DNA from: Candidatus Woesebacteria bacterium UBA5941
GTDB taxonomy: Bacteria; Patescibacteriota; Microgenomatia; UBA8517
Assembly: GCA_002430735.1 (NCBI GenBank)
Contig: DJCV01000003.1
Span: 21,142-85,141, forward strand
Length of the DNA: 64,000 nucleotides
Direction of reading: 5' to 3'
Shown: one piece after another, positions 33,674 through 52,527 of the stretch
Numbering within the stretch: the first letter of the stretch is position 1
Layout: every line of letters starts with the position of its first letter
The notes under the pieces: generated by a model
Told to the model about the DNA's origin: nothing
The model's input: the letters and a program-made list of their open reading frames with translations, nothing else
The model's database searches: none
Program-made: the position numbers and the translations under genes

Positions 33674-34120
33674 TTACTTTTTAGTTTTTGTACTTACTTT
33701 TTTCACTGCTTTTGGTTTCTCAACTGCAACTACTGGTTCAGTAGCAACTGCCTTTGCATCTCGTCGTGCTTTTTTAACAACAACAACTTCTTTTTCAATA
33801 ACGGATACTCGAATATGGCTCATTCGTTTCTTGATTGGGTGCCATTGTCCGCGTGAAACGGGAATACCTCGCTTTAATGCTGGTCCTTGTGAGATTTGAA
33901 TCTCATGAAAGACGAGCTTTGATTCATCTGCTCCACCTTGTCGTGCATTTGCGATAGCTGTCTTAATAACCTTAAGTAATGGTTCAGCTGCGAATTTTGC
34001 TGAATACGGTAAAATCTCAACTGCATCACTTGGTTTCATTTTTCGCACACTATCTGCAACCAAACGCATTTTGCGTGGTGTCATTCTGACGAACTTTTGT
34101 GTAGCGGTAAACGTATTCAT
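33674..34120 (-). CDS. rplV: 50S ribosomal protein L22 (K/A-rich C-terminal extension)
   Basis: L22 core plus ...EKPKAVKKVSTKTKK tail. Confidence 0.9.
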   Translation of the reverse strand: MNTFTATQKFVRMTPRKMRLVADSVRKMKPSDAVEILPYSAKFAAEPLLKVIKTAIANARQGGADESKLVFHEIQISQGPALKRGIPVSRGQWHPIKKRMSHIRVSVIEKEVVVVKKARRDAKAVATEPVVAVEKPKAVKKVSTKTKK

Positions 34121-34128
34121 AGTAATTG

Positions 34129-34410
34129 TTATGTCTTATCAGATGTTCGTTTAACAACTTGACCGTGACCTCTAAAGGTTCGGGTAGGAGAGAATTCTCC
34201 CAATCGATGTCCAACCATATCTTCAGTTACATAGACTTCAACGAAAATGCGTCCATTATGGACATTAAAATATCGTCCTACAAAGCTTGGTGGAATCTGA
34301 CATGCGCGTGACCAAGTCTTAATTGCATTGCCTTTTTTACCCATATCAGCTTCTACCTTTTTAACAAGGCGTGGGTCTACATATGGTCCTTTTTTGCTTG
34401 ATCGTGACAT
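34129..34410 (-). CDS. rpsS: 30S ribosomal protein S19
   Basis: [12 protein letters not shown]... Confidence 0.95.
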
Positions 34411-34417
34411 ATTTTAA

Positions 34418-35170
34418 TTAATGACTATGCTTTCCAGGTTTTCTCTTACTTACAATCATTGTATTGGAATACTTCTTTCTTCGTCGGGTCTTTCCAACTG
34501 CTTTCTTTCCAACATACGTCTTTGGATATTTAAGTCCAACGCTTGATCGTCCTTCTCCTCCTCCGTGAGGGTGAGCTCCAGGGTGCATCGCAACTCCTCG
34601 AACACGAGGTCTTACTCCGAGCCATCGCATACGACCTGCTTTACCAAGCACTCGATGTCTGTGTCCTACATTTCCAACCTGTCCAATAGTAGCCCAACAC
34701 AGTGGATTAAATCGCTTAATTTCTCCTGATGGAAGTTTAATGAGTACAAAGAGGTTCTCTCGTCCCTGTAATACTGCAGCGTTTCCAGCGCTTCGTACAA
34801 TCTGTCCTCCTCGACCAACACGAACTTCAAGGTTGTGAATTAAGGTTCCAACTGGAATCTTACTCAATGGGAGCGCATTCCCTGGTTCAATCGGAGCCAT
34901 TTCAGACGCAATCACTTTTGCTCCAACTACTAATCCTTGAGGCGCTAAAGTATACCTTTTTTCTCCATCTTCGTAAACCAGAAGAGCAATATCTGCTGTT
35001 CGGTTTGGATCGTACTCAATAGATTCCACACGAGCCCAAATATCTCGCTTGTCTCGTCGCCAATCGATAATTCGGAAAAATCGCTTGTGTCGTCCACCCT
35101 GGTGTCGAACAGTAATCTTTCCATTAGATCGGCCGCTGTGTTTTTGTAAAATTTCAAATAAATGGTTCAT
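34418..35170 (-). CDS. rplB: 50S ribosomal protein L2 (short N-terminus)
   Basis: ...GRNN.G.ITVRHQGGGHKR...MHPGAHPHGGGEG... Confidence 0.95.
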   Translation of the reverse strand: MNHLFEILQKHSGRSNGKITVRHQGGRHKRFFRIIDWRRDKRDIWARVESIEYDPNRTADIALLVYEDGEKRYTLAPQGLVVGAKVIASEMAPIEPGNALPLSKIPVGTLIHNLEVRVGRGGQIVRSAGNAAVLQGRENLFVLIKLPSGEIKRFNPLCWATIGQVGNVGHRHRVLGKAGRMRWLGVRPRVRGVAMHPGAHPHGGGEGRSSVGLKYPKTYVGKKAVGKTRRRKKYSNTMIVSKRKPGKHSH

Positions 35171-35173
35171 ATA

Positions 35174-35485
35174 TTACTTTTTAGTTGTTTTTTTTACTTC
35201 TTTCTTTGATGCTTTTTTCTCTTGGGTAAATACACTAATAGTTTGACCTTCCTTCAAAGAAACGATTGCTTTCTTCCAAGATGGGGCAGAAACGCGTGCA
35301 CCTCGCATTGTTCGTCTTGTCTCAGCTTTATAGTTCATCGTTGCCACATCAGTGACTTTAACTGGGAAAATTTCTTCGATTAATGCTCGAATTTGAAACT
35401 TAGACAGTTCACGAGAAACACGGAACGTAAATCGTCCTTGTGCTGCGTGAGCTAATGATTTTTCAGTAAATAATGGTTTTATCAT
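35174..35485 (-). CDS. rplW: 50S ribosomal protein L23
   Basis: 103 aa L23. Confidence 0.9.
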   Translation of the reverse strand: MIKPLFTEKSLAHAAQGRFTFRVSRELSKFQIRALIEEIFPVKVTDVATMNYKAETRRTMRGARVSAPSWKKAIVSLKEGQTISVFTQEKKASKKEVKKTTKK

Positions 35486-36171
35486 GCTGTTTTCTTTTTA
35501 GTAGCTGCTTTTTTAACTGCGGTTACTTTCTTTGTTGGTTTTACGGCTACAACCTTTTCTTTTTTCGCGGTTTTTTCAACCTTTATACCGGATAATACTT
35601 CAGAATCAACGAGTAATACCTGGTTCATTAAAACTGCATATGCGTTTACTTGATCCCAAGAAAGGATAGAGACACCATCAATGTTTCGAAATGCTTTTGC
35701 GAGTGCCCAGTTCTTTGGAGTTAATGCAAGAAGAACGGTCTTCGCTCCAGTCATCTTAATAACAGTTGCAGCTTCTTTTGTTTTCGTAATCCCAGAAAGA
35801 TCAATAAAGTGAACTGCATTTTCAGCAATCTTTAAAGCAATACTTCCACGTCGTGAATGCACTTTTAGTTTTTTAGACAGATAATGAGTTGTCTTAATAC
35901 CCTTTGGTCCGTGTGTTACTCCTCCACCGACAAAGATCGGAGCTCGTGCTGAGCTGTGTCGTGCATTTCCGGTGTGCTTCTGCTTATACATTTTCTTTGT
36001 TGTCAAAGAAACTTCTCCTCGTGTTAAGACCTGCGGAAGACCAGTATGAGCACGTTCTCGGTATACGTGGAATGCTTGAGCTACTAATGCTTTTGGTGTC
36101 TCGGTTGCAAATCCTTCAGGAAGGGTTACTTCAGATGGTTTGGTCGCAGTTAGTGAGTATAGGTGAGCCAT
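35482..36171 (-). CDS. rplD: 50S ribosomal protein L4
   Basis: 229 aa L4. Confidence 0.9.
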   Translation of the reverse strand: MAHLYSLTATKPSEVTLPEGFATETPKALVAQAFHVYRERAHTGLPQVLTRGEVSLTTKKMYKQKHTGNARHSSARAPIFVGGGVTHGPKGIKTTHYLSKKLKVHSRRGSIALKIAENAVHFIDLSGITKTKEAATVIKMTGAKTVLLALTPKNWALAKAFRNIDGVSILSWDQVNAYAVLMNQVLLVDSEVLSGIKVEKTAKKEKVVAVKPTKKVTAVKKAATKKKTA

Positions 36172-36866
36172 TATTCAGTTCCTCCTTCTTGTGTTGCAGT
36201 AACTTCAGTAGCTGGTGCACCAGTTACTTTATTTTCAGAAATTCGCTTTACAACAATTAAACTCCCTTTGTTTCCAGGGATTGGTCCTCGAACCCACAAT
36301 TCATTTCGTTCTGCGTCGACCGCAACAATTGGGAGATTTTTGACGGTTACTTGTTCAACTCCCATATGTCCTGCCATTCTTTTTCCTTTATACACGCGAC
36401 CTGGTGTTGTTCCTTGTCCAATTGAACCTGGTGCACGATGTCGATCGCTTTGTCCGTGAGTTTTTGGCCCTCCGCGGAATCCATATCGCTTAACGCCTCC
36501 TGCAAATCCTTTTCCTTTTGAAATGCCTGTTACTTGCACCATATCTCCAACAGTGAAAATATCACTCACCTTCACGGTGTCTCCAGCTTTCAATGTTTCT
36601 TCTTCAGTGATTTCAACTTCACGCAAAAAACGAGGCGCTCCTTTTTCAGTTGTAGCGCCTTTCAAGTGACCTTGCATTGCTTTTGTTGTGTTTTTGAGTT
36701 TCTTTGATCCGAAGCCTAATTGGATTGAAGTATAACCGTTGGTATCTTGATCCTTCACCATAGTCACGATACAAGGACCTGCGTTAATAATAGTTACAGG
36801 AGTACGGACGTTTCCTTCAAACGTCTGTGTCATTTTAATTTTGGTTCCGAGTAATGTATTGATCAT
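36171..36866 (-). CDS. rplC: 50S ribosomal protein L3
   Basis: Start set to MINTLLGTKIKMTQTFEG (ATG complement 36864-36866); ORF-track 5' extension covers the leader hairpin. Confidence 0.9.
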   Translation of the reverse strand: MINTLLGTKIKMTQTFEGNVRTPVTIINAGPCIVTMVKDQDTNGYTSIQLGFGSKKLKNTTKAMQGHLKGATTEKGAPRFLREVEITEEETLKAGDTVKVSDIFTVGDMVQVTGISKGKGFAGGVKRYGFRGGPKTHGQSDRHRAPGSIGQGTTPGRVYKGKRMAGHMGVEQVTVKNLPIVAVDAERNELWVRGPIPGNKGSLIVVKRISENKVTGAPATEVTATQEGGTE

Positions 36867-36872
36867 AATGGC

Positions 36873-36897
36873 AAAAAAATAAGCGCCCGGAGGCGCC
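36873..36897 (-). promoter_or_regulatory. attenuator-like GC-rich hairpin + U7 tract in the rplC leader, 6 nt upstream of the L3 start codon
   Basis: Minus RNA GGGAGGCGCCUCCGGGCGCUUAUUUUUUUGCC-AUUAUG: stem AGGCGCC/GGCGCUU (loop UCCG) followed by U7; alternative pairing GGAG/CUCC shares the same nucleotides. Confidence 0.4.
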
Positions 36898-36962
36898 TCC
36901 CTAGGCAACTCCAAACTTTCCTAAAACTCCTGAGCAAGAAACAGCTTCATCAGTTAGGTCGA

Positions 36963-36991
36963 ATTATATCAAAGCAGCGTACCGCATGCAA
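36963..36991 (-). promoter_or_regulatory. consensus sigma70-like promoter for the rplC-... operon
   Basis: Minus strand TTGCAT (36986-36991) - 17 nt - TATAAT (36963-36968). Confidence 0.5.
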
Positions 36992-37019
36992 GGTAAGCCT
37001 CAAACTGCATCAGAAAGTG

Positions 37020-37048
37020 TTGAAATCTGCTCTTTTTTGTCCTATAAT
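37020..37048 (+). promoter_or_regulatory. consensus sigma70-like promoter for small acidic ORF A
   Basis: TTGAAA (37020-37025) - 17 nt - TATAAT (37043-37048); AGGAGG SD at 37068-37073, 5 nt before ATG. Confidence 0.5.
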
Positions 37049-37078
37049 TCCATGCTCAGCTAAAAACAGGAGGTTTTC

Positions 37079-37324
37079 ATGTTTCACCACGAAGCTCAAG
37101 AGATTTTGGCCAGTGTCATCTTGCAATACCAGATTGAAGACCCAGAACTGATCAATGAGCTGACCGGGCACGCAGGCGAATTTGTCAGGATTAACGGCAA
37201 CCCGCTCTCTCGCACCGAGGAAGACCACAACCAATGGGAAGCCCGTAAAGTGTCGATGTCACTCGTTGATCCACTCTCGCAGTTTATGCGGGACTTTATG
37301 GAAGAGGTGCTTGACCTGAGGTAG
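37079..37324 (+). CDS. small acidic hypothetical protein A (81 aa)
   Basis: ORF with perfect promoter, AGGAGG SD and downstream intrinsic terminator; MFHHEAQEILASVILQYQIEDPELINELTGHAGEF... Confidence 0.5.
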   Translation: MFHHEAQEILASVILQYQIEDPELINELTGHAGEFVRINGNPLSRTEEDHNQWEARKVSMSLVDPLSQFMRDFMEEVLDLR

Positions 37325-37342
37325 CCTCCACACTGGCAAATA

Positions 37343-37372
37343 GCGATCGTTTTTATAAACGGTCGCTTTTTT
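37343..37372 (+). terminator. intrinsic terminator after ORF A
   Basis: GCGAUCGU-uuuuauaa-ACGGUCGC 8-bp stem followed by UUUUUU. Confidence 0.6.
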
Positions 37373-37384
37373 CATGCCATAGTA

Positions 37385-37413
37385 TTGTAAAACCACCATT
37401 TATGTCTTATAAT
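37385..37413 (+). promoter_or_regulatory. consensus sigma70-like promoter for small acidic ORF B
   Basis: TTGTAA (37385-37390) - 17 nt - TATAAT (37408-37413); AGGAGG SD 37435-37440, 5 nt before ATG 37446. Confidence 0.5.
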
Positions 37414-37445
37414 ACTAATCCAAATAGGCCATAGGAGGAAAATGA

Positions 37446-37643
37446 ATGTTGGGCCTACAGTATCTCGCGGAACAGATTGCAGATGAGACAAAATTGGAAG
37501 GAGCAGCTCTTGCAGATTTTCGAACACTGGTCGGGAAAGTTCTGGAAATGGGACAGAAACCGGAAGAGTGTACCTTCAATGGTACACATCCTGAAGCCCG
37601 TCAAGCGTTCGAAATGCTCACCGCAGAACTTTGTCCATCGTAA
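37446..37643 (+). CDS. small acidic hypothetical protein B (65 aa)
   Basis: MLGLQYLAEQIADETKLEGAALADF...KPEECTF...; own promoter, SD and terminator. Confidence 0.5.
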   Translation: MLGLQYLAEQIADETKLEGAALADFRTLVGKVLEMGQKPEECTFNGTHPEARQAFEMLTAELCPS

Positions 37644-37657
37644 TCCTTTTTCCTGAA

Positions 37658-37684
37658 GGTCAATCACACCGATTGGCCTTTTTT
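37658..37684 (+). terminator. intrinsic terminator after ORF B (overlaps convergent tlyA-like stop codon)
   Basis: GGUCAAUC-acacc-GAUUGGCC 8-bp stem + UUUUUU. Confidence 0.55.
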
Positions 37685-38240
37685 ATGGCGTAAGAAGCGC
37701 TAAAAATTCTTTATTCTTTCCACGTTCTCCTAAAATAGGAGATTCCACGAAACCTTCAATGGTTATTCCCAAATCAGTAATATCTTTCTTTGTCTTATCT
37801 AAAACCTCATTCATTTTTTCTTCAATAAGTCTTCCCTTTTGTAAGTATTCCTTCGGTGCTTCATAGTGCGGCTTAATTAGGGCTATAATACGGCCTTTTT
37901 CTTTGAGGTTCTTTACAGCACTCGGAAGAATTAATTTCTGTGGAGTCCATGCAACGTCAATTGTAATAAGATCCATTTTTTCAGGGAGCTCGACATGAAG
38001 GGCATTCGTGCGTTCCATAACAACGACCCTTGGGTCATTTCGTAAGGTCCATGCCAGTTCTCCATAGGCTGTGTCTACTGCATATACTTTTTGCGCACCG
38101 TTTTTAAGAAGACAATCGGTGAATCCGCCAGTTGAACAACCGAAATCAGCACAGATTAAATTAGACACTGAAATCGTAAAGGTATCTAATGCATGCTGCA
38201 ATTTTTCACCCGCACGGGAGGCAAATTGTTTGGTTTCCAT
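37683..38240 (-). CDS. tlyA: TlyA-family (FtsJ-like) rRNA 2'-O-methyltransferase without N-terminal S4 domain
   Basis: SAM-binding block ICADFGCSTGGFTDCLLKNGAQKVYAVD; start at METKQFASRAGEKL (ATG complement 38238-38240) with TATAAT 7 nt upstream. Confidence 0.7.
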   Translation of the reverse strand: METKQFASRAGEKLQHALDTFTISVSNLICADFGCSTGGFTDCLLKNGAQKVYAVDTAYGELAWTLRNDPRVVVMERTNALHVELPEKMDLITIDVAWTPQKLILPSAVKNLKEKGRIIALIKPHYEAPKEYLQKGRLIEEKMNEVLDKTKKDITDLGITIEGFVESPILGERGKNKEFLALLTP

Positions 38241-38323
38241 TGAGTGATTATATCGCATGTTTGACTATGGGAATTTGCAGTTATACACTGCCCATATCAA
38301 GCAGTAACAGTGAGGATCTCATC

Positions 38324-38521
38324 ATGATTGATGATGTTCAGAGTACAGACGAACAACTGTCGAGTGAAGACAAAAAACTATTGAAAGGGCTTATCGGAAC
38401 ATACGATAACCCAGAAGAGACATTCGAGTTTTTGCGCCTGTATCGTAAAGCGTCTGCTTACATTCGGGATTTGCTTAACCACTACGGCGCCGAATTAGTT
38501 GCAAACGATGGGAATGAGTAA
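38324..38521 (+). CDS. small acidic hypothetical protein C (65 aa)
   Basis: MIDDVQSTDEQLSSEDKKLLKGLIGTYDNPEETFEF...; GUGAGGA SD-like 7 nt upstream; TTGACT -35-like at 38261-38266; shares PEE-TF motif with ORF B. Confidence 0.4.
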   Translation: MIDDVQSTDEQLSSEDKKLLKGLIGTYDNPEETFEFLRLYRKASAYIRDLLNHYGAELVANDGNE

Positions 38522-38561
38522 CAGATTGTATTGTAATGGGGTCACCGACTTGGTGATCTCA

Positions 38562-38870
38562 TTACATCTTTACTTCAATGGAGACTCCAGCAGGAAGATC
38601 TAAATTAGAAAGGGAATCAATAGTTCTCTCAGAAGGATCTAAAATATCTATTAAACGCTTGTGAATAAGCATTTCGTAGTGATCCCGTGCATTTTTATCA
38701 ATGAAAGGACCAGCGTTTACTGCATAAAGGGAGCGTTTCGTAGGAAGTGGGATTGGGCCGACAATTTTAGCACCAGTAGCAATTGCCGCGTCCAAAATCT
38801 TGGCTGCAGCCTCGTCAATGACTCTGTGGTCATAGCTCTTGAGCTTAACTCGAATTCTACCGGTTGGCAT
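38562..38870 (-). CDS. rpsJ: 30S ribosomal protein S10
   Basis: MPTGRIRVKLKSYDHRVIDEAAAKI... Confidence 0.95.
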   Translation of the reverse strand: MPTGRIRVKLKSYDHRVIDEAAAKILDAAIATGAKIVGPIPLPTKRSLYAVNAGPFIDKNARDHYEMLIHKRLIDILDPSERTIDSLSNLDLPAGVSIEVKM

Positions 38871-38906
38871 AATTGTTTCTTAAAGTGCGAGCAGGAGTGA
38901 GTGGTA

Positions 38907-40106
38907 TTACTTGGTGATCTTGGTGACAACACCAGCACCAACAGTCTTTCCACCTTCTCGAATTGCGAATCTCATACCTTCTTCGAGAGCGACTGGGGCA
39001 ATCAATTTCACACTCATTTTAGCGTTATCTCCAGGCATAATCATTTCAACACCTTCTGGAAGAGTAGCTTCTCCTGTAATGTCACCTGTTCGAATAAAGA
39101 ACTGTGGCTTGTATCCGCTAAAGAATGGTGTATGTCGTCCACCTTCTTCTTTAGACAAAACATATACTTCAGCGTCAAATTCTGAGTGTGGTGTGATTGA
39201 TTTTGGCTTAGCCAAAACTTGTCCTCTTTCAATATCGTCTTTTTCAACTCCTCGAAGTAATACTCCGACGTTGTCTCCAGCTTCTGTTAAGTCTAAAGTC
39301 TTTCGGAACATTTCGAGACCCGTTACAACGGTTGTCTTTGTCTCTTTAATACCTACGATTTCGATTTCTTCGTTAACCTTCAATTGTCCACGTTCTACTC
39401 GTCCAGTTACAACAGTTCCTCGACCTTTGATTGAGAATACATCTTCAACTGGCATTAAGAATGGCTTATCAGTGTCTCGACTTGGATCTGGAATATAGCT
39501 ATCAACTGCTGCCATAAGATCCAAAATCTTTTGTTCGTATTCTTTGTCTCCTTCGGTAGCTTTCAAAGCTGAACCTCGGATAACTGGGATTTCATCTCCT
39601 GGGAAGTTGTATTTCTTCAAAAGATCTCGAACTTCTTCTTCAACTAAGTCAATAAGTTCTGCGTCATCAACCATATCGCACTTGTTAAGGAAAACGACCA
39701 ATGCTGGAACGTTAACCTGACGAGCTAAAATAACGTGTTCTCGAGTTTGAGGCATCATTCCATCTGCTGCTGATACGACGAGGATTGCTCCATCCATCTG
39801 AGCTGCACCGGTAATCATGTTCTTGATGTAGTCTGCGTGTCCAGGAGCATCAATGTGAGCATAGTGGCGTTTTTCTGTTTCGTATTCAACGTGAGTAATG
39901 TTGATAGTGACTCCTCGAGCTTTTTCTTCAGGAGCATTGTCGATTTGATCATAAGCCATTGGCTTTGTTCCGTTTCCTGGTTGTTTAGCCAAAACGGTAG
40001 CAATGGCTGAAGTTAATGTAGTTTTTCCGTGGTCAACGTGACCAATGGTCCCAATATTGACGTGGGGCTTTGTTCTTTCAAATTTTTGTTTTGTATCTGC
40101 TGCCAT
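38907..40106 (-). CDS. tuf: elongation factor Tu
   Basis: [23 protein letters not shown]-motifs; 399 aa. Confidence 0.97.
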
Positions 40107-40126
40107 GTGTGTATAGTACGAATTGT

Positions 40127-40154
40127 ATTTTACCTAGTCTAGGCGTGATTGCAA
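40127..40154 (-). promoter_or_regulatory. sigma70-like promoter for tuf (near-leaderless)
   Basis: Minus strand TTGCAA (40149-40154) - 16 nt - TAAAAT (40127-40132), ~20 nt before ATG 40106. Confidence 0.45.
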
Positions 40155-40156
40155 GG

Positions 40157-40168
40157 GGCAAATTTGCC
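40157..40168. promoter_or_regulatory. perfect 12-bp palindrome GGCAAATTTGCC immediately upstream of tuf -35 (candidate operator)
   Basis: Self-complementary 12-mer flanked by GATTGC/GCAATC arms. Confidence 0.3.
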
Positions 40169-40325
40169 GAAGCAATCCTCCTTAGTTGTTACTAGGATGA
40201 GGCTATTATCTTAAAGCCAGCCGAGCTTGTCAACACCCTAAACAAAGGAGGCTCCATTTGGTATGTCTTCTTCAGCCAAGAATGCTATACTATGGGAATT
40301 CAAATCGTTCATAAGGAGGACTGAA

Positions 40326-41297
40326 ATGATTCGATTTCGAGGAGCACTTTTTATCTTAATGGTCGTGATACTGCAATCTTTGTCTGTGAGCGCTCAGTGG
40401 CAAGGCCAAATAACCGGCGTGTTGACTGACAATATCGTCACGTTTACTGGATACAGCTTGCCGGCAAATGCAGAAGTCCTTGTGTCTCGGACTTTTCAGG
40501 GATCATGCATGGACCCTGATTTTCAAAATCGTTCAATTGGCCAAACATCTAATATCGGGAACTTAGTCTATACGAATGAAGTCCTGTGTGCCGGAGTGTA
40601 TGAATACCGGTTCACAATTGGCTCACTCCTATATCCTGTTCAAATCCAGTATGTGCGTCCTGCTCCCAACTTGGCAGACTTACCGCGTGGCTGCGGCAGC
40701 AAGAACCTAATACAACTGGGGTCACTCGTTCAACCGACGCGCGATGTGGCATTTTGGATGCTGCCAACCACTGGTGCTACGTCGAACAACGGGAATCCAC
40801 TTCGAACTATTACGAGTGGCGTACAAGTGAGGGTCATTGACGGCCCAGTTTGTAACGCAGACGGCATTTGGTGGAGGGTTGATTACCGGTTTACCTTTGG
40901 GGAAGGCATTCCATCGCAAAATATTGGATGGATCCGTGAATCAGCAAAAGGTGTGACACAGCTTGCTGTTGTAGCAAACAGCACTGTGGAGTTGCCAAAC
41001 GTCGTGACGCTGTCGACAACCATACCACAGGCAACCAGCTTGCTCTCTGTGCAAGGAATCAAAATGCGCTCTGCACCATCAGTGAAGGATGGCGAAAGCG
41101 TGCGGGTCGATGCATTAAAGACTGGTGATGGGCCGGTTACGATATTGGGACAGAACGGGAACGGAGCCTTTATCCAGGTACAAAAAGGTGCCATCGTTGG
41201 ATGGATTTGCACCCATTTAGCGGACACAAACGTCATTGAGTTGAATATCGACCTGCCGGTCACCGATGAATCAATGAATGAATGTTTCGTAAAGTAG
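40326..41297 (+). CDS. secreted protein with two bacterial SH3 (SH3b)-like domains
   Basis: Start at MIRFRGALFILMVVILQSLSVSAQ (signal peptide) with AAGGAGGA SD 5 nt upstream; SH3b-like blocks ...VQVRVIDGPVCNADGIWWRVDY...GWIRE and ...GESVRVDALKTGDGPVTILGQNGNGAFIQVQKGAIVGWICTHL. Confidence 0.6.
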   Translation: MIRFRGALFILMVVILQSLSVSAQWQGQITGVLTDNIVTFTGYSLPANAEVLVSRTFQGSCMDPDFQNRSIGQTSNIGNLVYTNEVLCAGVYEYRFTIGSLLYPVQIQYVRPAPNLADLPRGCGSKNLIQLGSLVQPTRDVAFWMLPTTGATSNNGNPLRTITSGVQVRVIDGPVCNADGIWWRVDYRFTFGEGIPSQNIGWIRESAKGVTQLAVVANSTVELPNVVTLSTTIPQATSLLSVQGIKMRSAPSVKDGESVRVDALKTGDGPVTILGQNGNGAFIQVQKGAIVGWICTHLADTNVIELNIDLPVTDESMNECFVK

Positions 41298-41353
41298 AAA
41301 GGAAGAATAAATTGGGGGGATCTATAATGGATCCCCTTTTTTCATGGAGTGGA

Positions 41354-43513
41354 TTATGCTTCTTTGCCTTTTGCAGCAACGATTTGAGCCGTTACGTTAC
41401 TTGGAACTTCCTCGTAGTGAGAAGGTTCAACATAAGAGCTTGCTCGACCTTGAGAGATAGATCGTAGTTTCGTTGCATATCCGTGTAATTCAGCCAATGG
41501 TACCGTTCCCGTAATAACCGTAAACATACCCTTCTTTTCAGTTCCTGAAATATTAGCTCGCTTACTGGAAAGATCTCCAATAATGTCTCCCATAAATTCG
41601 TCAGGGGTTGAGACTTCAATCTTCATAATAGGCTCAAGAAGTGCCATATCAGCGTTCTTTGCGGCTTCTTGTAGTCCGAGAGAACCTGCGATCTTAAAGG
41701 CCATTTCAGATGAGTCGACATCGTGGAAACTTCCATCGTATACAACAACCCGAATATCAACGAGTGGATACCCAGCCATAATTCCGTTTTCAAGTTTCTC
41801 TTTAACACCCTTTTCAATAGGTCCAATAAACTCCTGAGGGATTGCTCCTCCTTTAATCTCACTAACGAATTCAAATCCTTCTCCACGACCACGAGGTTCG
41901 ATGCGAAGCCAACAGTGGCCGTATTGCCCTCGACCTCCAGTTTGGCGAACGTATTTACCTTCTCCAGTTGAAATTTTTCGGATTGTTTCTTTGTAGGCAA
42001 CCTGAGGAGCTCCGGTTGTCGCTTCAACATTAAACTCTCGCTTCATTCGATTGACCAAGACTTCAAGCTGCAACTCTCCCATTCCGGAGATAATTGTTTG
42101 ACCAGTTTCAGGATTACTTTTGATTCGGAATGTTGGATCTTCGTCAGCGAGCTTGTTCAAAGCGAGTCCCATTTTTTCTTGGTCAGTCTTCGTTGCTGGT
42201 TCAATAGCAAGAGAGATAACAGGTTCTGGGAATGAAATAGATTCCAGAAGAATTGGGTGGGCTTCATCACACAAGGTATTTCCTGTTGTGGTGTCTCGAA
42301 GTCCAACAACTGCCACGATTTCTCCAGCATATGCCTCTTCAACAAGTTCTCGCTGATCAGCGTGGAGCAATACGAGTTTACCGATGCGCTCTCGTACTTG
42401 TCGACTTGCGTTATAGACTTCTTGTCCGGTCTTCAGCTTTCCAGAATAAATACGAACGTAGAGAAGGCGTCCTACGTGAGGATCAGTCATAACTTTGAAA
42501 CCAAGACCTGAGAATGGAGCTTCATTTTTTCGTTCTCGAATTTCTTTTTCGCCAGTTTTTGTGCTTACTCCTTCAACTGGTGGCACATCAACAGGGGATG
42601 GAAGATATTCAACAACCGCATTCAAAAGCAGTTGTGTGGTAGCTGTTCGATTGTCTCCTCCTAAGATAGGGAAGAACTTACCGCTAATAACACCTTTTCG
42701 AATAGCTCTTTTAATATCAAGCTCTGAAAGTTCTTGTCCTTCTAAATATTTGTTTAATGCCTCATCGTCAAATTCAGCAACGCGCTCAATCAATTGAGCT
42801 CTATATTTCTCAGCCATTTCCTTAATATCAGCTGGAATTTCTTCTTCTGTTAACTGAGTATCTTCAATAGCTTTATAGGTGTATGCCTTCATTTTGATCA
42901 AATCGACCATTCCTCGAAGTGAATGTTCAAATCCAACTGGAATTTGAATTGGAGCAGTATTTGCACCTAGTCGTTCATCAATAGACTTTAAGCTTCCTTC
43001 AAAGTCAGCTCCGATTAGATTTAACTTATTCAAAATACAAATACGAGGAACTTTATATTTGTCAGCTTGTCGCCAAACCGTTTCTGATTGAGATTCAACT
43101 CCTGTTCGTCCATCAAACACCATGACGGCTCCATCTAAAACTCGGAGTGATCGTTCAACTTCCGCCGTAAAGTCAATGTGGCCTGGAGTATCAATAATGT
43201 TAATTCGATAGTGTCCTGCCTCAACTGAAGTCGTTTCTTTTATATCCCAGAAGGTGGTAATCGCAGCTGAAACAATGGTAATTCCTCTCTCTCGCTCTTC
43301 TTCCATCCAGTCGGTTGCAGTTGTTCCATCGTCAACAGACCCTAATTTATAGGTCTTTCCTGTTTCATAGAGAATACGCTCAGTAGTAGTCGTTTTACCG
43401 GCATCAATGTGAGCAATAATTCCAATATTACGAATACGATCGTAATCAACTAAACGATCTTTCGTAACTGTGCTTACAATCGCGCTTTTCTTTTTTGCGG
43501 CTTGTGCTGCCAT
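41354..43513 (-). CDS. fusA: elongation factor G
   Basis: AHIDAGKTTTTERILY..., start set at MAAQAAKKKSAIVSTV (ATG complement 43511-43513). Confidence 0.95.
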   Translation of the reverse strand: MAAQAAKKKSAIVSTVTKDRLVDYDRIRNIGIIAHIDAGKTTTTERILYETGKTYKLGSVDDGTTATDWMEEERERGITIVSAAITTFWDIKETTSVEAGHYRINIIDTPGHIDFTAEVERSLRVLDGAVMVFDGRTGVESQSETVWRQADKYKVPRICILNKLNLIGADFEGSLKSIDERLGANTAPIQIPVGFEHSLRGMVDLIKMKAYTYKAIEDTQLTEEEIPADIKEMAEKYRAQLIERVAEFDDEALNKYLEGQELSELDIKRAIRKGVISGKFFPILGGDNRTATTQLLLNAVVEYLPSPVDVPPVEGVSTKTGEKEIRERKNEAPFSGLGFKVMTDPHVGRLLYVRIYSGKLKTGQEVYNASRQVRERIGKLVLLHADQRELVEEAYAGEIVAVVGLRDTTTGNTLCDEAHPILLESISFPEPVISLAIEPATKTDQEKMGLALNKLADEDPTFRIKSNPETGQTIISGMGELQLEVLVNRMKREFNVEATTGAPQVAYKETIRKISTGEGKYVRQTGGRGQYGHCWLRIEPRGRGEGFEFVSEIKGGAIPQEFIGPIEKGVKEKLENGIMAGYPLVDIRVVVYDGSFHDVDSSEMAFKIAGSLGLQEAAKNADMALLEPIMKIEVSTPDEFMGDIIGDLSSKRANISGTEKKGMFTVITGTVPLAELHGYATKLRSISQGRASSYVEPSHYEEVPSNVTAQIVAAKGKEA

Positions 43514-43521
43514 AGGCAATG

Positions 43522-43550
43522 ATTTTATCAATATTTGGAGGTTAAAGCAA
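43522..43550 (-). promoter_or_regulatory. sigma70-like promoter for fusA (leaderless arrangement)
   Basis: Minus strand TTGCTT (43545-43550) - 17 nt - TAAAAT (43522-43527), 8 nt before ATG. Confidence 0.4.
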
Positions 43551-43555
43551 TGAGC

Positions 43556-43601
43556 CGACAAAAAAAGACCTCTCGGGGTCTAGTGAAAAGCTCCGAGAGG
43601 A
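43556..43601 (-). terminator. intrinsic terminator ending the small-peptide transcript just upstream of fusA
   Basis: Minus RNA 11-bp stem CCUCUCGGAGC.../...GCUCCGAGAGG class (CCUCUCGG...CCGAGAGG) followed by UCUUUUUUU. Confidence 0.6.
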
Positions 43602-43862: not shown

Positions 43863-43910
43863 AAATATGGGCTATTTTGGCCGATTATTGATTTATGGTA
43901 CTGTGTGCTA

Positions 43911-44342
43911 ATGAAAGTAAAGATAAAACGATTCGACTCGTCACTCCCCATTCCTGCATATCAAACCAATGGGGCTGCAGGCTTTGACTGCTATGCGCGA
44001 GAAACAATAGTAATTCCAACGCATACAATCGCATACATCCCCCTCAACATTGGTCTTGAGATTCCAGAGGATTGTTGGGTACTTGTTGCAGCGCGCGGAT
44101 CGACGCACAAAATGGGAATTATGCCAATTAATGGGATTGGTGTTGGAGATTGGGATTTTTGCGGGGATAACGACGAGTATAAATTTGCCGTTTATAACTT
44201 TACCGATAATGAAGTAACCATTGAAAAAGGAACACGTGTCGCTCAGATGATTATTATGAAATATGAACAAGTTGAGCTTACTGAGGTAGACCACTTTGAA
44301 CACAAAGACCGCGGGGCATTTGGTAGTACTGGGAAAAAATAG
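43911..44342 (+). CDS. dut: dUTP diphosphatase
   Basis: MKVKIKRF...AAGFDCYA (dUTPase motifs)...RGSTHKMGI; ATG at 43911 (ORF-track start at 43905 is GTG). Confidence 0.85.
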   Translation: MKVKIKRFDSSLPIPAYQTNGAAGFDCYARETIVIPTHTIAYIPLNIGLEIPEDCWVLVAARGSTHKMGIMPINGIGVGDWDFCGDNDEYKFAVYNFTDNEVTIEKGTRVAQMIIMKYEQVELTEVDHFEHKDRGAFGSTGKK

Positions 44343-45513: not shown

Positions 45514-48500
45514 TTATACCATCATCCGTGCGCGTTCAGGGTCTACAGGAATGAGGCGTCCGATGATAACATTTTCTTTGAGTCCAATCAAACGGTCTCG
45601 CTTACCCATCAATGCACTTGTGGCCAAAACGTCAGTTGTCTGTTCGAATGATGCTGCTGACAACCAGCTCTCGGTGAGCAATGCGCGCTTTGTGATTCCC
45701 ATAATGGTTGGTCGTGCAGTTGCTGCTTCCCCACCTTGAGCAATCGTCTTTTCGTTCTCTTCGTCAAAGCTTGCTTTATCAACTGTCTCACCTGGCAAGA
45801 GTGGTGTGCTTCCACCTGTCGCGATCTTCACCTTGTCGCTCATCTTTCGAACGATAACTTCAAAGTGACGGTCGTTAATTGGAATTCCTTGTGATTCGTA
45901 TACTGCTTGTAACTCATTCAACAGATATTCTTGAGCTGGGATTAAGCCTCGAATTGCGAGTACTTCCTTCACATCCAAGTATCCAGATGAGAGTTGAGCA
46001 CCAGCTTCAACGAGTTGTCCATCTTCAACCATGAGCTTACTTGTCTTTGGAATCACAAATTCTCGTGTCTCTTGTGGCTTCACATTTACTGATTCAATAA
46101 TGACTTTCCAACCGTCTTCAAGTTCTTCAACCTTAACCTTACCTGCGATGTCAGTTAATGGTGCCATGCTCTTTGGAATACGTGCTTCAAAGAGTTCCTC
46201 TACTCGAGGCAAACCTTGGGTCACGTCGACTCCAACCACACCGGCTGCGTGCTTAGTTCGGAGCGTAAGCTGTGTTCCTGGTTCTCCAATTGATTGAGCA
46301 GTTAATACTCCAACTGGTGTTCCCATCTCAGCAATTTGCTTGTTTGAGAGATCCCATCCGTAACATGCTGCACACATTCCGTATCGGCTTTCACAACTTA
46401 ATGGTGATCTCACAAATACTGATGGAATTTCAGCTTGATCAATTTCCTTAGCTGCTGGCTCATCGATAATCGTTCCCTTAGCTACAATTACTTTTCCATC
46501 CTTGGTTGTAATATCCTCGAGTGAAATTCGACCTGCGATTCGTCGAGCATATACATTGGTTCGGAAGTTTCGAGTAATCGTAATACCTTCAGTTGTTCCA
46601 CAATCTTCTTCTCGAATGATCACATCATGAGCTACGTCAACGAGTCGTCGAGTTAAGTATCCAGCATCAGCTGTCTTAAGCGCGGTATCAGTCAATCCTT
46701 TTCGAGATCCACGAGAGCTTGTTACGTATTCAAATACTGAGAGTCCTTCTCGGAAGTTACTCTTAATAGGCAATTCAACGATCTTTCCGAGTGGATCAAC
46801 AACGAGTCCTCGCATACCAGCGATCTGTTTGATCTGATCTCGTGATGTACGTCCAACTTTAGCGTCAATAACGATTCTGATTGAGCTAGTTGGGTCTACT
46901 AAGTCCCATGTCTTGTCAGCAATTTCTTCAGTTGTTTCAATCCAAACTGCTTCACTCAATCGTTTCTTTTCTTCCTTCGTGATCAACCCTTCGGCAAAAG
47001 TTGTTTCGATTTCAGCAACTTTTTGGTTAGCAATATCAATCATCTTAGATTTCTCAGGGTGAACTACTGCGTCTGAAATTCCGAATGAAAGCCCTGAATA
47101 AGTTCCTCCAACGAATCCAATATCTTTAATATCATCAATCATTTGAATTACTCGATCATGAGGGACTTTAGTAAATCCTGTCATAATAAGATCCTGGATA
47201 AGACCTGAAACCATGCTCTCATTCACAAATCCAAATTCAGCTGGGAGCACTTCATTAAAGAGAATTCGTCCTACAGTTGTTTCAATAATGTCAGTTCCAA
47301 GTTTGACCTTGATTAATTGTCTTAAGAACAACTTTCCTGTTTGATAAGCAAAGATTGCTTCGTTTTTATCAGAATAGATCGTGCTACCAGCCTCAATTCG
47401 AGGGTCTACGCTTGTGTAGTAGTACACTCCCAATGCAATTTCCTTAGATGAAGGAGCACTGGTTGGTGATCCGTCAGCAGGCTTCAACAAGTTTCGATCT
47501 GAAATAACTCTCTCTTTAACTTCTTTGATTGCGCGCTCAGAGAGTGGCAAGTGCACAGCCATTTGGTCTCCATCGAAGTCAGCTCCGAATGCTTTACATA
47601 CTGCAGGGTGCAATCGAATAGCGCTTCCTTCAATTAAGATTGGATAGAATGCTTGGATACCGAGCTTGTGCAATGTAGGAGCACGGTTGAGTAACACTGG
47701 GTGATTCTTTGTAATCTCTTCCAAGATGTCAAAGACTTCACTTGGTCGTCGTTCCAAAAGGTTCTTCGCACTCTTCACATTTGGTGCAATTCCTCGAACA
47801 ATCATTTCTCGAAGCACGAATGGCTTAAAGATCTCAAGTGCCATTTCCTTCGGAAGTCCACATTGATTAAGCTTCAATTCTGGTCCTACAACGATAACTG
47901 ATCGTCCAGAGTAGTCAACACGCTTACCCAATAAGTTCTGTCGGAATCGTCCTTGCTTCCCTTTCAACATGTCTGAAAGTGATCGTAATGGTTGCTTTCC
48001 GCGTCCTCGTCGAGTTGCTTTTCGTTGAGAGGCGTCAATCAAAGAGTCAACAGATTCCTGCAACATTCGTTTTTCATTTCTCAAAATGATTTCAGGAGCT
48101 CCAAGATTAATTAAGTGCTTTAATCGGTTATTGCGATTAATAACACGTCGGTATAAGTCGTTTAAGTCGCTTGTTGCGAAACGTCCTCCTGAAAGTTGCA
48201 CCATCGGTCGCAAATCTGGTGGCAAGATTGGAAGAACCTTCATAACGGTCCATGTTGGAGAAACGTGTCCTGATCGCATACCGTCAACCAACTTCAATCG
48301 GCGAGTTAATTTAATGTATCGGCTACCTTTTCCTTTGACCGCATCGATTTCTTCTTTGATCTCCTTAGAGAGGTCATCAAGTTTCAATGCTGCGAGTGCT
48401 TCATAAATAGCTTCTGCACCCATCTTGACGTCTACGAATGATTCAACTCCGTAAGAGCTGAGTTTGTCGAATTCATCTTCTGACAAGAATCCAAATTTTC

Positions 48501-51500
48501 GAACGTCTTTGACAATTCCAATAAGCTTTCCGAATAGTTCTTCAGTCTTCTCGAGAGTTACTTTCTCTTCTTCAGAAAGGCTTGCTTCTTTCTTTCGAGT
48601 TTCGAGCTCAACTTCAGAAAGGGCGAGTGCTAATTGTTCTTGACCTTTAATCTTCTCTTCAGCTTTCTTTCGTCGAACTTCACCATCTTCTTTAACGAGC
48701 GCAAGTCGTTCTTTGTAGAGCTCTTTCACTTCGTCAACTTTCTCTCCTCGTGATTTTTCAAGTGTCTTAATAGCTTCAGTTCGGCCTGCTTCATCAACAT
48801 TCATCACAAGGTATCGAGCGAAGTACACAACTTGCTCAATTGCACGAGGTGCGAGATCCAAAAGGAGAGATACCTTTGAAGGTGCCCCTTTAAAGAACCA
48901 TACGTGCATAACAGGTGCTGCCAAGCTAATGTGTCCCATGCGTTCTCGTCGAACACGAGACTCAGTTACTTCAACTCCACATTTGTCACAAACAACTCCC
49001 TTATATCGAATTCTCTTGTATTTTCCACAATAACATTCCCAATCCTTTGAAGGTCCGAAGATTCGTTCGTCAAAGAGACCATCTTTTTCACTCTTTAATG
49101 TTCGATAGTTAATAGTCTCAGGCTTTGTAACTTCTCCACGGCTCCATGCACGAATTTCTTCAGGTGAAGCGAGTTTGATTCTCAATCCTCCAAAGTCTTC
49201 TAAGTTTGAAAGCAGAGAGAGCGGATCAACGAGTTCTGCTTTTTTGTCAGTCAATTTTTCAACGATATCTTCTCCTGCTTCGTTTTTAGGTTGAGCATTT
49301 TCGATTTGGATAGAAAGTCCCAATGAATTCAATTCTCGAATTAATACTTTAAAGCTTTCAGGTACTTTTGCTTCAGGAATTGGTTCACCTTTCACAATTG
49401 CACCAAATGCTTGTGCACGTCCTACGATATCGTCGGACTTAATAGTCAACATTTCTTGTAATGTATGTGCAGCTCTGTGTGATTCTAATGCCCAGACTTC
49501 CATTTCTCCCAATCGTTGTCCACCCATTTGAGCTTTTCCTCCAAGAGGTTGTTGTGTCACGAGTGAGTATGGTCCAGTTGATCGAGCGTGAGTCTTATCC
49601 TCAATCATGTGCTTCAGCTTCAAGATGTATCCAATTCCAACAACAGTGTCTTCAGCAAATTGTTCTCCTGTTCGTCCATCAAAGAGTCTAATTTTTCCAC
49701 TTCGTGGAAGTCCAGCGTTTTCAAGTTCTTGAGAGATGACATCATCATCCATGTTGTCAAATACTGGAAGTGCTCCCTTTTCTCCATTCGCAGAGAGTGC
49801 CCAACCCAAATGTGCTTCCATAAGTTGTCCCAAGTTCATACGTGCGAGAACTGAGAGTGGAGAAATAATAATATCTACAGGTGTTCCATCTGGAAGATAT
49901 GGCATGTCTGCAGCATTCATGACTTTAGCAATAACACCTTTGTTTCCGTGTCGTCCGGCGAGTTTGTCTCCAACCATGACTTTTCGGATTTGTGCAACTT
50001 TAACGATAATCGTCTTCATAACACCAGGCCCAAGCTCGTCGCCACCTTCTTTGTCCAAGACTTGGACATCAACAACGATTCCTTCTTCTCCGTGAGGTAC
50101 TCGAAGTGAGGTGTCTCGAACTTCTCGTGCTTTCTCTCCAAAGATTGCGCGGAGCAATCTTTCTTCAGCATTTAATTCTGTTTCTCCTTTTGGAGCAATT
50201 TTTCCAACCAAAATGTCGTTTGGTCCAACTTCTGCACCAAGTACAACAACTCCGTCTTCAGCGAGGTTTGCAAGTTCCATTTCAGAAACGTTTGGAATAT
50301 CGCGAGTCAATTCCTCAGGCCCAAGCTTTGTTTCAACGAGGTCAGCTTGATATTCCTTAATGTGGATCGAAGTTAACAAATCATCCTTGACGAGTCTGTC
50401 TGACACAATCAAGGCGTCTTCAAATCCGTATCCTTCGAATGAAGCGTAAGCGACTACTAAGTTTGTTCCGAGCGCGAGTTCTCCTTCTTCAGCAGAAGGT
50501 CCATCAATTAAAAGGTCTCCTTTTTTAACTTTTTGTCCAACGACAACTCGAGCTTTTTGGTTGTATGAAGTTGATTGTGTTGTTCTCTTGAACTTTGTAA
50601 GTCTGTAAATAGCTCGTTCTCCGTCTTCAGCCATTTCAACAGCACTTCGAACTGGTTTTACTTGCTTTTTATCAAGTCGGACTTCGATTCGGTTTCCATC
50701 TACGTAATCAACAACTCCGTCGAAATCGCTTGTAACAACATGTCCCATTGACTCAGCAATTGCACCTTCCATACCAGTTCCAACGATTGGACTTTGAGGA
50801 GCAACAAGCGGAACAGCCTGACATTGCATGTTAGATCCCATAAGCGCTCGATTACCTTCGTCGTGAGCGAGGAATGGAATAAGAGATGCTGATGCACCGA
50901 ACACTTGTCGAGGAGTTACGTCAATGTAATCAATAACGTCTGATGGTCCTTCGAGGAAGGCGTCATTAAATCGGTATGGAACTCGATCGTCCATAACAAT
51001 TCCTTCTTCGTTTACCGTCACGCCACTGTGAGTGATGTGATATTTAGCATCATCATCTGCGGTAAGATAGGTTACTTCGTCTAATACTTTCACTACTGTC
51101 TTACCACCTTTTTCTGTCTTTTCTACTTTTCGGTATGGAGCTTCTAAGAAACCGAATTCATTAATTCGTGTGTAGAGAGCCAAATAGGTAACAAGTCCGA
51201 TGTTTGGTCCTTCAGGAGATCTGACTGGGTCAATACGACCATATTGAGACGCATTAATGTCTCGAATAGAGAAGCTTGCTCGTTCACGGTTAATACCACC
51301 AGGTCCAAGCACTGAGACGCGGCGCAAGTTATCAACCTCAGAAAGAGGGTTTGTGTTATCTAAAATAGTAGATAACTGATTGCTTCGGAAAAATTCATTA
51401 ATTGATGCAATCAATGGTCGAGCATTAATTAAGTTTTGTGGAAGTGGTTTGTCTTCAGGTGCAATCAAGCTCATCTTTTCTTTCACTGATCTCTCAAGTT

Positions 51501-52527
51501 TCAACAAACCTGCCCGGAACGCATGAGTTGCCACTAATTCTCCCACTCGTCGAAGTCTTCGATTGCTTAAGTGATCAATATCATCAACGTGTCCGTGTCC
51601 GTTTTGAAGTCCAATAAGGTATGAAATGGTTGCCAAAATATCTTGCTTGGTGAGTACCCAATTTTCTCGTTCGTTCGCAACTGTTAAATCAAGTCGTTTG
51701 TTGATCTTGTATCGGCCAACTTTTCCTAAGTCATACCGTCGGGTATCTAAGAACAAGCTTTCAAAGAGAGCTTGAGCGTTATCAATAATGGCTGGTTCCC
51801 CAGGTCGGAGCTTTCGATAGATTTCCAAAAGAGCTTCGTCTTGAGTCTTTGTTGGGTCTTTTTCAATGGTCTTTTTAATGAATCGGTGGTTTTTGTCAGT
51901 ATCAATTTCTGAGAAAGCTTCTTGAATTTCTTGATCGCTTTCAATTCCCATTGCACGAAGAAGGGTAGTTGCAGAAACTTTTCGTCGCTTATCAATTCGA
52001 GCTGAGATTACATCGTTCTTGCTGATTTCGAATTCGAGCCATGATCCATGAAGTGGTCGAACTTCAGCCATGTAAAGCATTCGTCCAGTTGCACGATCTC
52101 GTGCACCAGAGAAGTAAATACCAGGTGATCGAACGAGCTGGTTAATAACTGCGCGTTCAATTCCGTTAATGATGAATGTTCCGGCAGTTGTCATTTGTGG
52201 GATATTTCCCATAAAGACTTCCTGTTCGACTGATTCACCAGTCTTCATGTTGATTAATGTAGCGACTAATTTAAATGGAGCAGCAAAAGTAATACCTTTT
52301 TCTTCTGCATACTTTGGAGTGATTTGTGGTTCTTCTAATGTGTGGCTGCCTAAAAGCAATTGCCAATTTTTTCCTGTAAAGTCGTTAATTGGAGAAACCT
52401 GTGCAATTTCCTCTGCAATTCCTTCATTTAAAAACCAATCCCAGCTTTCTCTTTGTACGAGAGATAAATCAAGTTCTGGTAGGTTTTTCTCTGTTTTTCC
52501 GAAATTGCGTCGTTGGGTTTTTGCCAT
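45514..52527 (-). CDS. rpoBC: fused DNA-directed RNA polymerase beta-beta' (RpoB-RpoC) polypeptide, 2337 aa
   Basis: N-terminus matches beta; C-terminal half matches beta' (Zn finger [35 protein letters not shown] catalytic loop); no stop at junction (~49180-49310). Confidence 0.9.

Follow-up and report, generated by a model that had tools for sequence, protein, structure and literature searches.

In Escherichia coli, transcription of the S10 operon is attenuated at its leader by ribosomal protein L4. In Mycobacterium tuberculosis, the S4-like N-terminal domain of the rRNA 2'-O-methyltransferase TlyA was found by cryo-electron microscopy to be critical for recognition of the 50S subunit (PMC9168844). 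Here, we analyzed the junction between rpsJ (S10) and rplC (L3) in a stretch of 64,000 nucleotides (nt) from Candidatus Woesebacteria bacterium UBA5941 (contig DJCV01000003.1, positions 21,142 to 85,141 of the forward strand; hereafter, the window), where the ribosomal str/S10 cluster lies on the minus strand according to the open reading frame (ORF) list and Pfam matches. About 1.7 kb of DNA separates the rpsJ stop codon at 38562 from the rplC start, as the ORF coordinates bear out, and it carries three small plus-strand ORFs, opposite to the ribosomal protein genes, exactly where a preliminary description made from the letters alone had placed them (ORFs A, B, and C), together with a TlyA-like methyltransferase gene. 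We report that A and B have orthologues whose divergence bears the marks of protein-coding genes, and, with a probability of about two in three for the reading as one whole, that the junction is a boundary between transcription units and a hotspot in which A and B are real orphan genes, accessory cargo whose location is incidental. The three small genes and their signals are as follows.

37020-37048, plus strand: promoter of ORF A, TTGAAA-17-TATAAT, 11/12 in the consensus scan.
37079-37324, plus strand: ORF A, 81 amino acids (aa), isoelectric point (pI) 4.55, with an AGGAGG Shine-Dalgarno (SD) sequence at 37068-37073, 5 nt before the start.
37342-37373, plus strand: intrinsic terminator of ORF A, from the consensus scan (hairpin and T-run at 37342-37367), -14.9 kcal/mol on the plus and -10.9 on the minus strand.
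37385-37413, plus strand: promoter of ORF B, TTGTAA-17-TATAAT, 10/12 in the consensus scan.
37446-37643, plus strand: ORF B, 65 aa, pI 4.47, with an AGGAGG SD sequence at 37433-37438 and 7-nt spacing.
37655-37686, plus strand: terminator of ORF B, -13.9 kcal/mol on the plus and -9.2 on the minus strand, with a U6 tail on the plus strand only.
38261-38289, plus strand: weak promoter-like site of ORF C, TTGACT-17-TACACT, 9/12 in the consensus scan.
38324-38521, plus strand: ORF C, 65 aa, pI 4.47, codon score 0.226, with an SD sequence.
38532-38566, plus strand: long hairpin after ORF C, -22.3 kcal/mol on the plus and -14.3 on the minus strand, poor in its U-tail.

We first consider whether A and B are genes. 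An exhaustive HMMER search with A, B, and C against 1.84 billion cluster-representative proteins returned, beyond the queries themselves, a sole true match: P0141, a protein of 82 aa with 45% identity to A (E 1.7e-10). This protein (A') is encoded on two 1.2-kb contigs of one organism (L172 and L173), along which follow in order the rplC N-terminus (30/32 residues the same as in the window), a conserved hairpin, a promoter, A', a terminator, a promoter, an AGGAG sequence, B', a terminator, and a membrane-protein ORF. B' is an ORF of 68 aa with 34% identity to B over 50 aa (shuffle P 0.003, from one positional comparison), while A and A' align with a Smith-Waterman score of 167, against 25 ± 5 for shuffled sequences. 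A relative thus keeps A and B in the same order and beside rplC. The signals are kept as well: in L172, A' is preceded by TTGAGA-17-TATAAT at 31 nt from its start, a distance equal to that of ORF A, and B' by TTGAAA-17-TATAAT; the spacing between A and B is 122 nt in both genomes; the terminator hairpins differ in sequence but not in position, that after A' included; and SD sequences stand at proper spacing before A/A' and B/B' alike. This shared order and spacing, with promoters and terminators retained, argues that A and B are real and separately transcribed.

The substitution pattern points the same way. Identity at codon positions 1/2/3 was 0.64/0.69/0.31 for A/A' and 0.49/0.60/0.37 for B/B', so that second positions are the most conserved and third positions are near saturation, and 21/35 identical residues of A/A' are encoded by different codons. 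Because such third-position-heavy substitution is expected under purifying selection, we conclude from the alignments that A and B are genuine protein-coding genes held under such selection, and that A/A' and B/B' constitute two new tiny protein families of two members each. The earlier proposal of separately transcribed small-protein genes is therefore upheld for these two. We also computed a codon log-likelihood score, trained on 44 long ORFs of the window and compared with 100 spurious ORFs. ORF B scored 0.256, within the range of true genes and reached by 2% of the spurious ORFs; ORF A was borderline at 0.046, its own frame far above the other five, with a GC content at third codon positions (GC3) of 0.63 vs. 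0.33 for the genome.

These data bear directly on a different explanation, namely that the proteins are irrelevant or not made, the strong plus-strand promoters and terminators serving to counter read-through from rpsJ and the methyltransferase gene and to insulate the promoter and leader of rplC, or the ORFs and hexamers being chance products of AT-rich DNA. Such an explanation would fit the background frequency of promoter-like hexamers in the window (below), the lack of a good minus-strand terminator for the methyltransferase gene in our folding, the mostly antisense orientation of the relatives' spacer ORFs to the operon, and an ORF C with no homologue. Against it, A and B, at 45% and 34% identity, keep amino acid sequence, length, and frame even with synonymous sites saturated, as non-coding spacers would not be expected to; their SD sequences are properly spaced in both genomes, and their codon scores are counted as well above those of spurious ORFs. 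With substitutions of a coding kind, A and B are unlikely to have only a non-coding or insulating role, and we give this explanation as a whole almost no weight.

The expression signals deserve a separate look. All three promoter-like sites claimed in the preliminary description are present, as are terminator hairpins after each ORF (by consensus scan for A and C, and by folding for B), although the 5-nt SD spacing given for both A and B applies to A and not to B. Hexamer pairs scoring at least 10/12 number 20 in the window, vs. 16.6 ± 3.7 expected from Markov shuffles. Background can thus account for their frequency, but not for their placement, 31-33 nt before SD-led starts, or for their conservation in L172, both non-random; it is on these grounds, and not by the hexamers alone, that the sites are meaningful. 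The hairpins after A, B, and C are all 4-8 kcal/mol more stable in plus-strand RNA than in its complement, because G.U pairs form in the plus-strand RNA, and this bias is a signature of selection on plus-strand transcripts. The terminator of ORF B adjoins the stop codon of the methyltransferase gene, and the hairpin after ORF C overlaps that of rpsJ.

All three products are acidic (pI around 4.5; net charges of -10, -6, and -7 for A, B, and C, respectively). In AlphaFold (AF2) models, A is predicted from its single sequence as a four-helix protein (predicted local distance difference test score [pLDDT] 74.8; predicted template modeling score 0.60), and C as a short helix, a turn, and a 33-residue helix (pLDDT 76.6). 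The portrayal of small acidic helical proteins accordingly stands for acidity in all three and for predicted helicity in A and C, the modeled pair. That they have no recognized domain was confirmed: scans against Pfam, NCBIfam, PHROG, and PADLOC gave nothing below E 0.01 (E > 0.1 for PHROGs). A word-indexed search of 5.8e9 proteins with concatenated A+B+C gave no match at E <= 10, a profile built from A+B and A'+B' recovered only A and A', no relative of A/B or of C was found on the viral contigs scanned, and a fold search against the viral database BFVD gave E > 2. Nor did A, B, and C show a signal peptide, a hydrophobic segment, or likeness in sequence or fold to any ribosomal or ribosome-associated family, their fold matches being non-specific. 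Two candidates were rejected. P0142, a 912-aa repeat protein, matched across the artificial B/C junction of the concatenated query and is thus compositional; a 112-aa spacer ORF of one relative (L019) resembled A at a shuffle P of 0.0005, but composition-corrected BLASTP and the hidden Markov model (HMM) of A were blank.

B and C had been suggested to be paralogues, a view that our comparisons did not sustain: BLASTP gave E 0.048 over 13 aa, the Smith-Waterman shuffle P was 0.09, and neither the B/B' HMM against C nor the C model against B produced a match. No paralogue of A, B, or C occurs in the window or the 171 fetched loci. ORF C has no homologue among the 1.84e9 representative proteins, the fetched loci, or the viral contigs. 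Its codon score lies within the range of true genes, being reached by 2% of the 100 spurious ORFs, and upstream extension to 38189 lowers it to 0.081, a drop that favors the 65-aa form. On codon usage and expression signals, ORF C is a probable singleton orphan gene.

We then placed these genes in the context of their surroundings. The window genome is of the Microgenomates (Woesebacteria-like, candidate phyla radiation [CPR]), and the identical sequence is also present in metagenome-assembled genome (MAG) GCA_002430615.1 and in several metagenome assemblies (contigs of up to 942 kb). Among the GTDB matches listed, L3 is closest to that of Microgenomates/Woesebacteria-like CPR bacteria (58-66% identity); closer siblings (L087, L089, and L090) were reached via methyltransferase homologues and their contigs, two of them (L087 and L089) having 78-80% identity to the window in L3 and 92-95% in S10. 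The genes and signals framing A, B, and C are as follows.

36171-36866, minus strand: rplC (L3), Pfam Ribosomal_L3, followed by rplD, rplW, rplB, and onward.
36874-36898, minus strand: terminator-like hairpin GGCGCC-UCCG-GGCGCU with a U-run in the rplC 5' leader, -13.1 kcal/mol on the minus strand vs. -8.9.
36963-36991, minus strand: rplC promoter TTGCAT-17-(TGA)TATAAT with an extended -10 box, kept between the window and L172 in their alignment.
37683-38258, minus strand: predicted TlyA-family rRNA 2'-O-methyltransferase catalytic domain (PF01728, TIGR00478).
38562-38870, minus strand: rpsJ (S10), Pfam Ribosomal_S10 1.5e-30, 36 nt downstream of tuf.

The true start of rplC is ATG 36866 (MINTLLGTKIKMTQ...), with an N-terminus, MINTLL, that is common to all relatives. 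A start at TTG 36914 had been assumed, which would carry the protein across the conserved leader hairpin, and the relatives align from ATG 36866. Upstream, the promoter occupies 36991-36986 (-35) and 36968-36963 (-10) on the minus strand, and the pattern TTGCnn-17-TGnTATAAT recurs about 125 nt before the rplC ATG in the window, in L172, and in 14 relatives (L007, L009, L011, L012, L014-L017, L087, L089, L090, L103, L108, and L123). The module spans 36874-36991 (minus strand) in the window and 99-240 in L172, and in the relatives it falls within the 120-200 nt upstream of rplC. Its leader is constant in length (82-95 nt), the GCGC/GCGC stem is invariant in 16/16 leaders, and an invariant (A/G)TG stands 12-15 nt past the -10 box, opening in every leader a mini-ORF of 6-11 codons (in the window, MKLFLAQEF and a stop). 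Among 80 GTDB loci, the leader motif was found in 9, all within the 13 closest Microgenomates-like relatives (L007-L019), and in 0/67 more distant ones. RNAalifold on the 16 leaders recovered the terminator stem only, with no supported structure upstream of it, and Rfam gave no match at E <= 1 in 34000-42000. The leader may be an attenuator or a leader-peptide control of the L3-L4-L23-L2 operon.

Because this promoter, leader, and hairpin are conserved before rplC in 16 loci, we conclude from the comparison that the rpsJ/rplC junction of this clade is a transcription-unit boundary. The preliminary description had taken S10-L3 as a tight intra-operon junction, a picture that fails here, where rplC has its own conserved promoter and leader. 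The -35 boxes of the A and rplC promoters, which stand back to back, are 28 nt apart, an arrangement kept in L172.

The methyltransferase has its own history at this site. It matches FtsJ (PF01728) at 1e-27 over residues 12-185, TIGR00478 (the TlyA family) at 2.8e-42 over model positions 51-225/228 (144.6 bits, below the cutoff of 185.8), and NF049952 with 107.5 bits, below the cutoff of 250; against the TlyA and "hemolysin" structures in the PDB (3opn, 3hp7, 5ks2, and 7s0s), E-values ran from 1e-30 to 1e-35. Only 7-11 residues precede the catalytic domain, and the S4-like N-terminal domain and linker are missing, as follows from an alignment that begins at model position 51 and covers residues 76-260 of 7s0s (M. 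tuberculosis TlyA). The protein is thus identified by homology as the catalytic domain of a TlyA-family rRNA 2'-O-methyltransferase of predicted activity and, as first described, without an S4 domain. Its start is ambiguous between ATG 38258 (191 aa) and, more likely, ATG 38240 (185 aa), the second Met, Met7, being where the proteins of the relatives begin. A TATAAT box lies 6 nt upstream of ATG 38240, a hint that the transcript could be near-leaderless, with a promoter overlapping the promoter region of ORF C.

The short form is common: at E <= 1e-20 it has 7,967 homologues, which carry the TlyA-family annotation in Woesebacteria/Microgenomates, and most of them are encoded away from S10/L3. 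In one group of relatives (L007-L012, L016, L087-L091, L093, L103, L108, and L123), however, the gene sits on the operon strand with rpsJ and rplC on either side, and many of those that hold this position are without A, B, and C. Since the S10-methyltransferase-L3 synteny spans a Microgenomates subclade, we conclude that the gene is an ancestral resident of the position and did not arrive there with A, B, and C. It had been described as divergently transcribed and inserted along with the small ORFs; it lies on the same strand as the ribosomal protein genes, and the joint insertion does not hold.

On either side of the methyltransferase gene, the DNA is variable, always upstream of the rplC promoter. 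From S10 to the methyltransferase, the gap can be around 0 (genes that abut or overlap slightly) and reaches up to 1379 nt; from the methyltransferase to L3, it is 137 to 1625 nt. We compared the spacer contents of the window, L087, L089, L090, L010, L016, and L108. The siblings L087, L089, and L090 have three small opposite-strand ORFs each; in L087 and L089, the ORF next to rplC comes with a divergent promoter of its own, and the spacer ORFs are followed by terminator hairpins. Elsewhere, the spacers encode membrane proteins (L007, L016, L087, L108, and L123) or acidic proteins (L010). Two spacer ORFs, L089_106 (2754-3074, minus strand) and L090_96 (4590-4880, minus strand), are homologous (27% over 74 aa, E 1.5e-5, shuffle P < 0.0005), both immediately downstream of the methyltransferase gene and convergent with it, and represent a second small orphan family at the hotspot. 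That pair apart, no relationship was detected among the spacer ORFs or between them and A, B, and C, and none of the spacer ORFs had a Pfam family aside from a HicA toxin in L014. Their GC3 is mostly above that of rplC in L087 and L089, and slightly above it in L090. The window, L172, L087, and L089 stand at roughly equal distances from one another, with 81-85% identity across the first 96 nt of rplC, yet A-B is shared by the window and L172 only, which points to replacement or exchange at the locus. Together, these comparisons identify the spacers between rpsJ and the methyltransferase gene and between that gene and the rplC promoter as a hypervariable hotspot for orphan genes with fast turnover.

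The HicA gene brings in another explanation, that A, B, and C are cargo of mobile elements or genetic conflict (toxin-antitoxin, immunity, anti-phage, or anti-defense genes) in an integration hotspot. In L014, a Blackburnbacteria MAG with no methyltransferase gene at this spacer, HicA (PF07927, 8.5e-16) lies beside a 102-aa ORF, its putative HicB partner, at 4178-4688 on the minus strand between rpsJ and rplC, i.e., in a spacer equivalent to that of A and B. Antitoxins, immunity proteins, and DNA mimics are typically small, acidic, and helical, and the patchy distribution, rapid turnover, and foreign-like codon composition seen here would suit such cargo. On the other hand, PADLOC, PHROG, and Pfam gave no match, viral contigs held no relative and viral folds no counterpart, and none of A, B, and C is basic or toxin-like. 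A and B, each with a promoter and a terminator of its own, do not have the bicistronic layout of a toxin-antitoxin pair, and the ORF, Rfam, and terminator scans showed no integrase, repeat, or transfer RNA (tRNA) landmark, no dedicated repeat or tRNA scan having been made. We consider conflict cargo unlikely.

A third explanation starts from the location itself, between rpsJ and rplC, and sees A, B, and C as lineage-specific factors of the ribosome, of translation, or of the rRNA methyltransferase, with regulation in common with rplC by way of the divergent promoter region that they share. The back-to-back promoters of A and rplC and their conservation in L172 speak for it, and acidic proteins could bind basic ribosomal proteins or mimic RNA. 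In one version, they would partner the S4-less TlyA-type enzyme, which has no ribosome-recognition domain of its own, the N-terminal domain that is essential for 50S recognition in TlyA (PMC9168844) being the part missing here. The enzyme, however, is widespread without A, B, and C (>7,900 homologues, mostly away from S10/L3), the gene after B' in L172 is a same-strand membrane protein and not the methyltransferase, unrelated ORFs occupy the same sites in sister genomes, and homology to ribosome-associated families is absent. The ribosome- or translation-associated role read from the context in the preliminary description is therefore weakened: sister spacers hold unrelated ORFs, and position is what speaks for it. 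Such a role strikes us as decidedly unlikely, and the broader idea that the orphan mini-proteins of the site, A and B as well as the unrelated ones of the sisters, modulate, in a lineage-specific way, the ribosome or the S4-less methyltransferase as very unlikely.

In the boundary and hotspot reading, which we prefer, the S10 cluster of this clade is split into two units, tuf-rpsJ, often with the S4-less methyltransferase gene, and a unit led by rplC; the spacers on either side of the methyltransferase gene here house three small monocistronic opposite-strand genes, C as a probable one, of which A-B is a patchily distributed two-gene cassette found in two sibling lineages only. The foreign-like codon composition of A suggests that it was acquired from elsewhere, perhaps by transfer or recombination between relatives via the conserved flanks. 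The products may be cytoplasmic, acidic, all-helical mini-proteins that bear no catalytic or nucleic-acid-binding motif, most plausibly stoichiometric binders or modulators of some basic partner, and they might be not core translation factors but accessory cargo, replaced rapidly at an inter-operon site that is permissive. Several points weigh against this reading. ORF C has no comparative support, its promoter-like site included; the A/B family has two members, the second of which is known from 1.2-kb contigs; the conserved back-to-back promoters could reflect co-regulation with the ribosomal genes, which would speak for the view of the preliminary description; and the binder or modulator idea is a weak one, drawn from size, charge, and helical prediction.

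Farther along the cluster, we observed other oddities. The neighboring genes beyond rpsJ are as follows.

38907-40106, minus strand: tuf, from the ORF and Pfam scan.
41354-43561, minus strand: fusA, from the ORF and Pfam scan.

Between them, at 40263-41297 on the opposite (plus) strand, lies a 344-aa ORF (323 aa according to gene callers) with a weak match to a bacterial SH3 domain, atypical codon usage (score 0.053, GC3 0.49), and a locally raised GC content of 47-50%, which looks like another foreign-like insertion in the str cluster. A dUTPase gene (PF00692) is found at about 43905-44342, again on the plus strand, between rpsG and fusA; the str/S10 cluster is broken here at several inter-gene boundaries by opposite-strand genes. 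At 45514-52527 (minus strand), Pfam domains of both RpoB (Rpb2) and RpoC (Rpb1) fall within a single ORF of 2,337 aa, an indication that rpoB and rpoC are fused.

What is new in these results is the A/A' and B/B' families with comparative proof of coding, a proof seldom available for CPR ORFs of about 65-80 aa; orphan genes as such are of an already known kind. A place inside a ribosomal gene cluster is, in this clade, no evidence of ribosomal function. Two by-products emerged, namely the clade-level synteny of an S4-less TlyA-type methyltransferase gene between rpsJ and rplC, and a previously undescribed conserved module of promoter, leader, and hairpin. Both this leader and the operon-embedded enzyme are more tractable leads than A, B, and C, and the leader module in particular may lend itself better to testing how CPR bacteria control ribosomal protein synthesis. 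If the modulator idea were true, the inter-operon spacer would be, in reduced CPR genomes, a fast-evolving place for factors that tune translation, with mini-proteins expressed from a promoter coupled back to back with that of rplC.

Compared with known systems, A and B resemble a type II toxin-antitoxin pair, such as HicAB of L014, in being adjacent small genes of patchy distribution with at least one acidic and helical product, but they differ in being separate units 122 nt apart, with no toxin domain and with both products acidic. The methyltransferase is like TlyA (TIGR00478; 5ks2 and 7s0s), a 16S/23S rRNA cytidine-2'-O-methyltransferase whose family targets 16S C1409 and/or 23S C1920, in its class I FtsJ-type S-adenosylmethionine-dependent methyltransferase domain, aligned over the whole catalytic domain, and unlike it in being without the S4-like N-terminal domain of about 60 residues, in scoring below the NCBIfam cutoff, and in lying between rpsJ and rplC in one subclade. 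The rplC leader differs from the E. coli S10 leader in preceding rplC and not rpsJ, in having no sequence or Rfam similarity to it, and in its invariant (A/G)UG with a mini-ORF of 6-11 codons; it is alike in that a promoter-proximal leader closes with a terminator-like hairpin just ahead of the gene that begins the L3-L4-L23-L2 block. Finally, A, B, and C depart from the usual ORFan genes of hypervariable hotspots in lying within the highly conserved str-S10 cluster and in having no mobility gene nearby in the ORF scan, no flanking-repeat search having been made. They are like such genes in having no family, in their restriction to one or two lineages, in their atypical composition and own expression signals, and in their replacement by unrelated genes at the same site in sister genomes.

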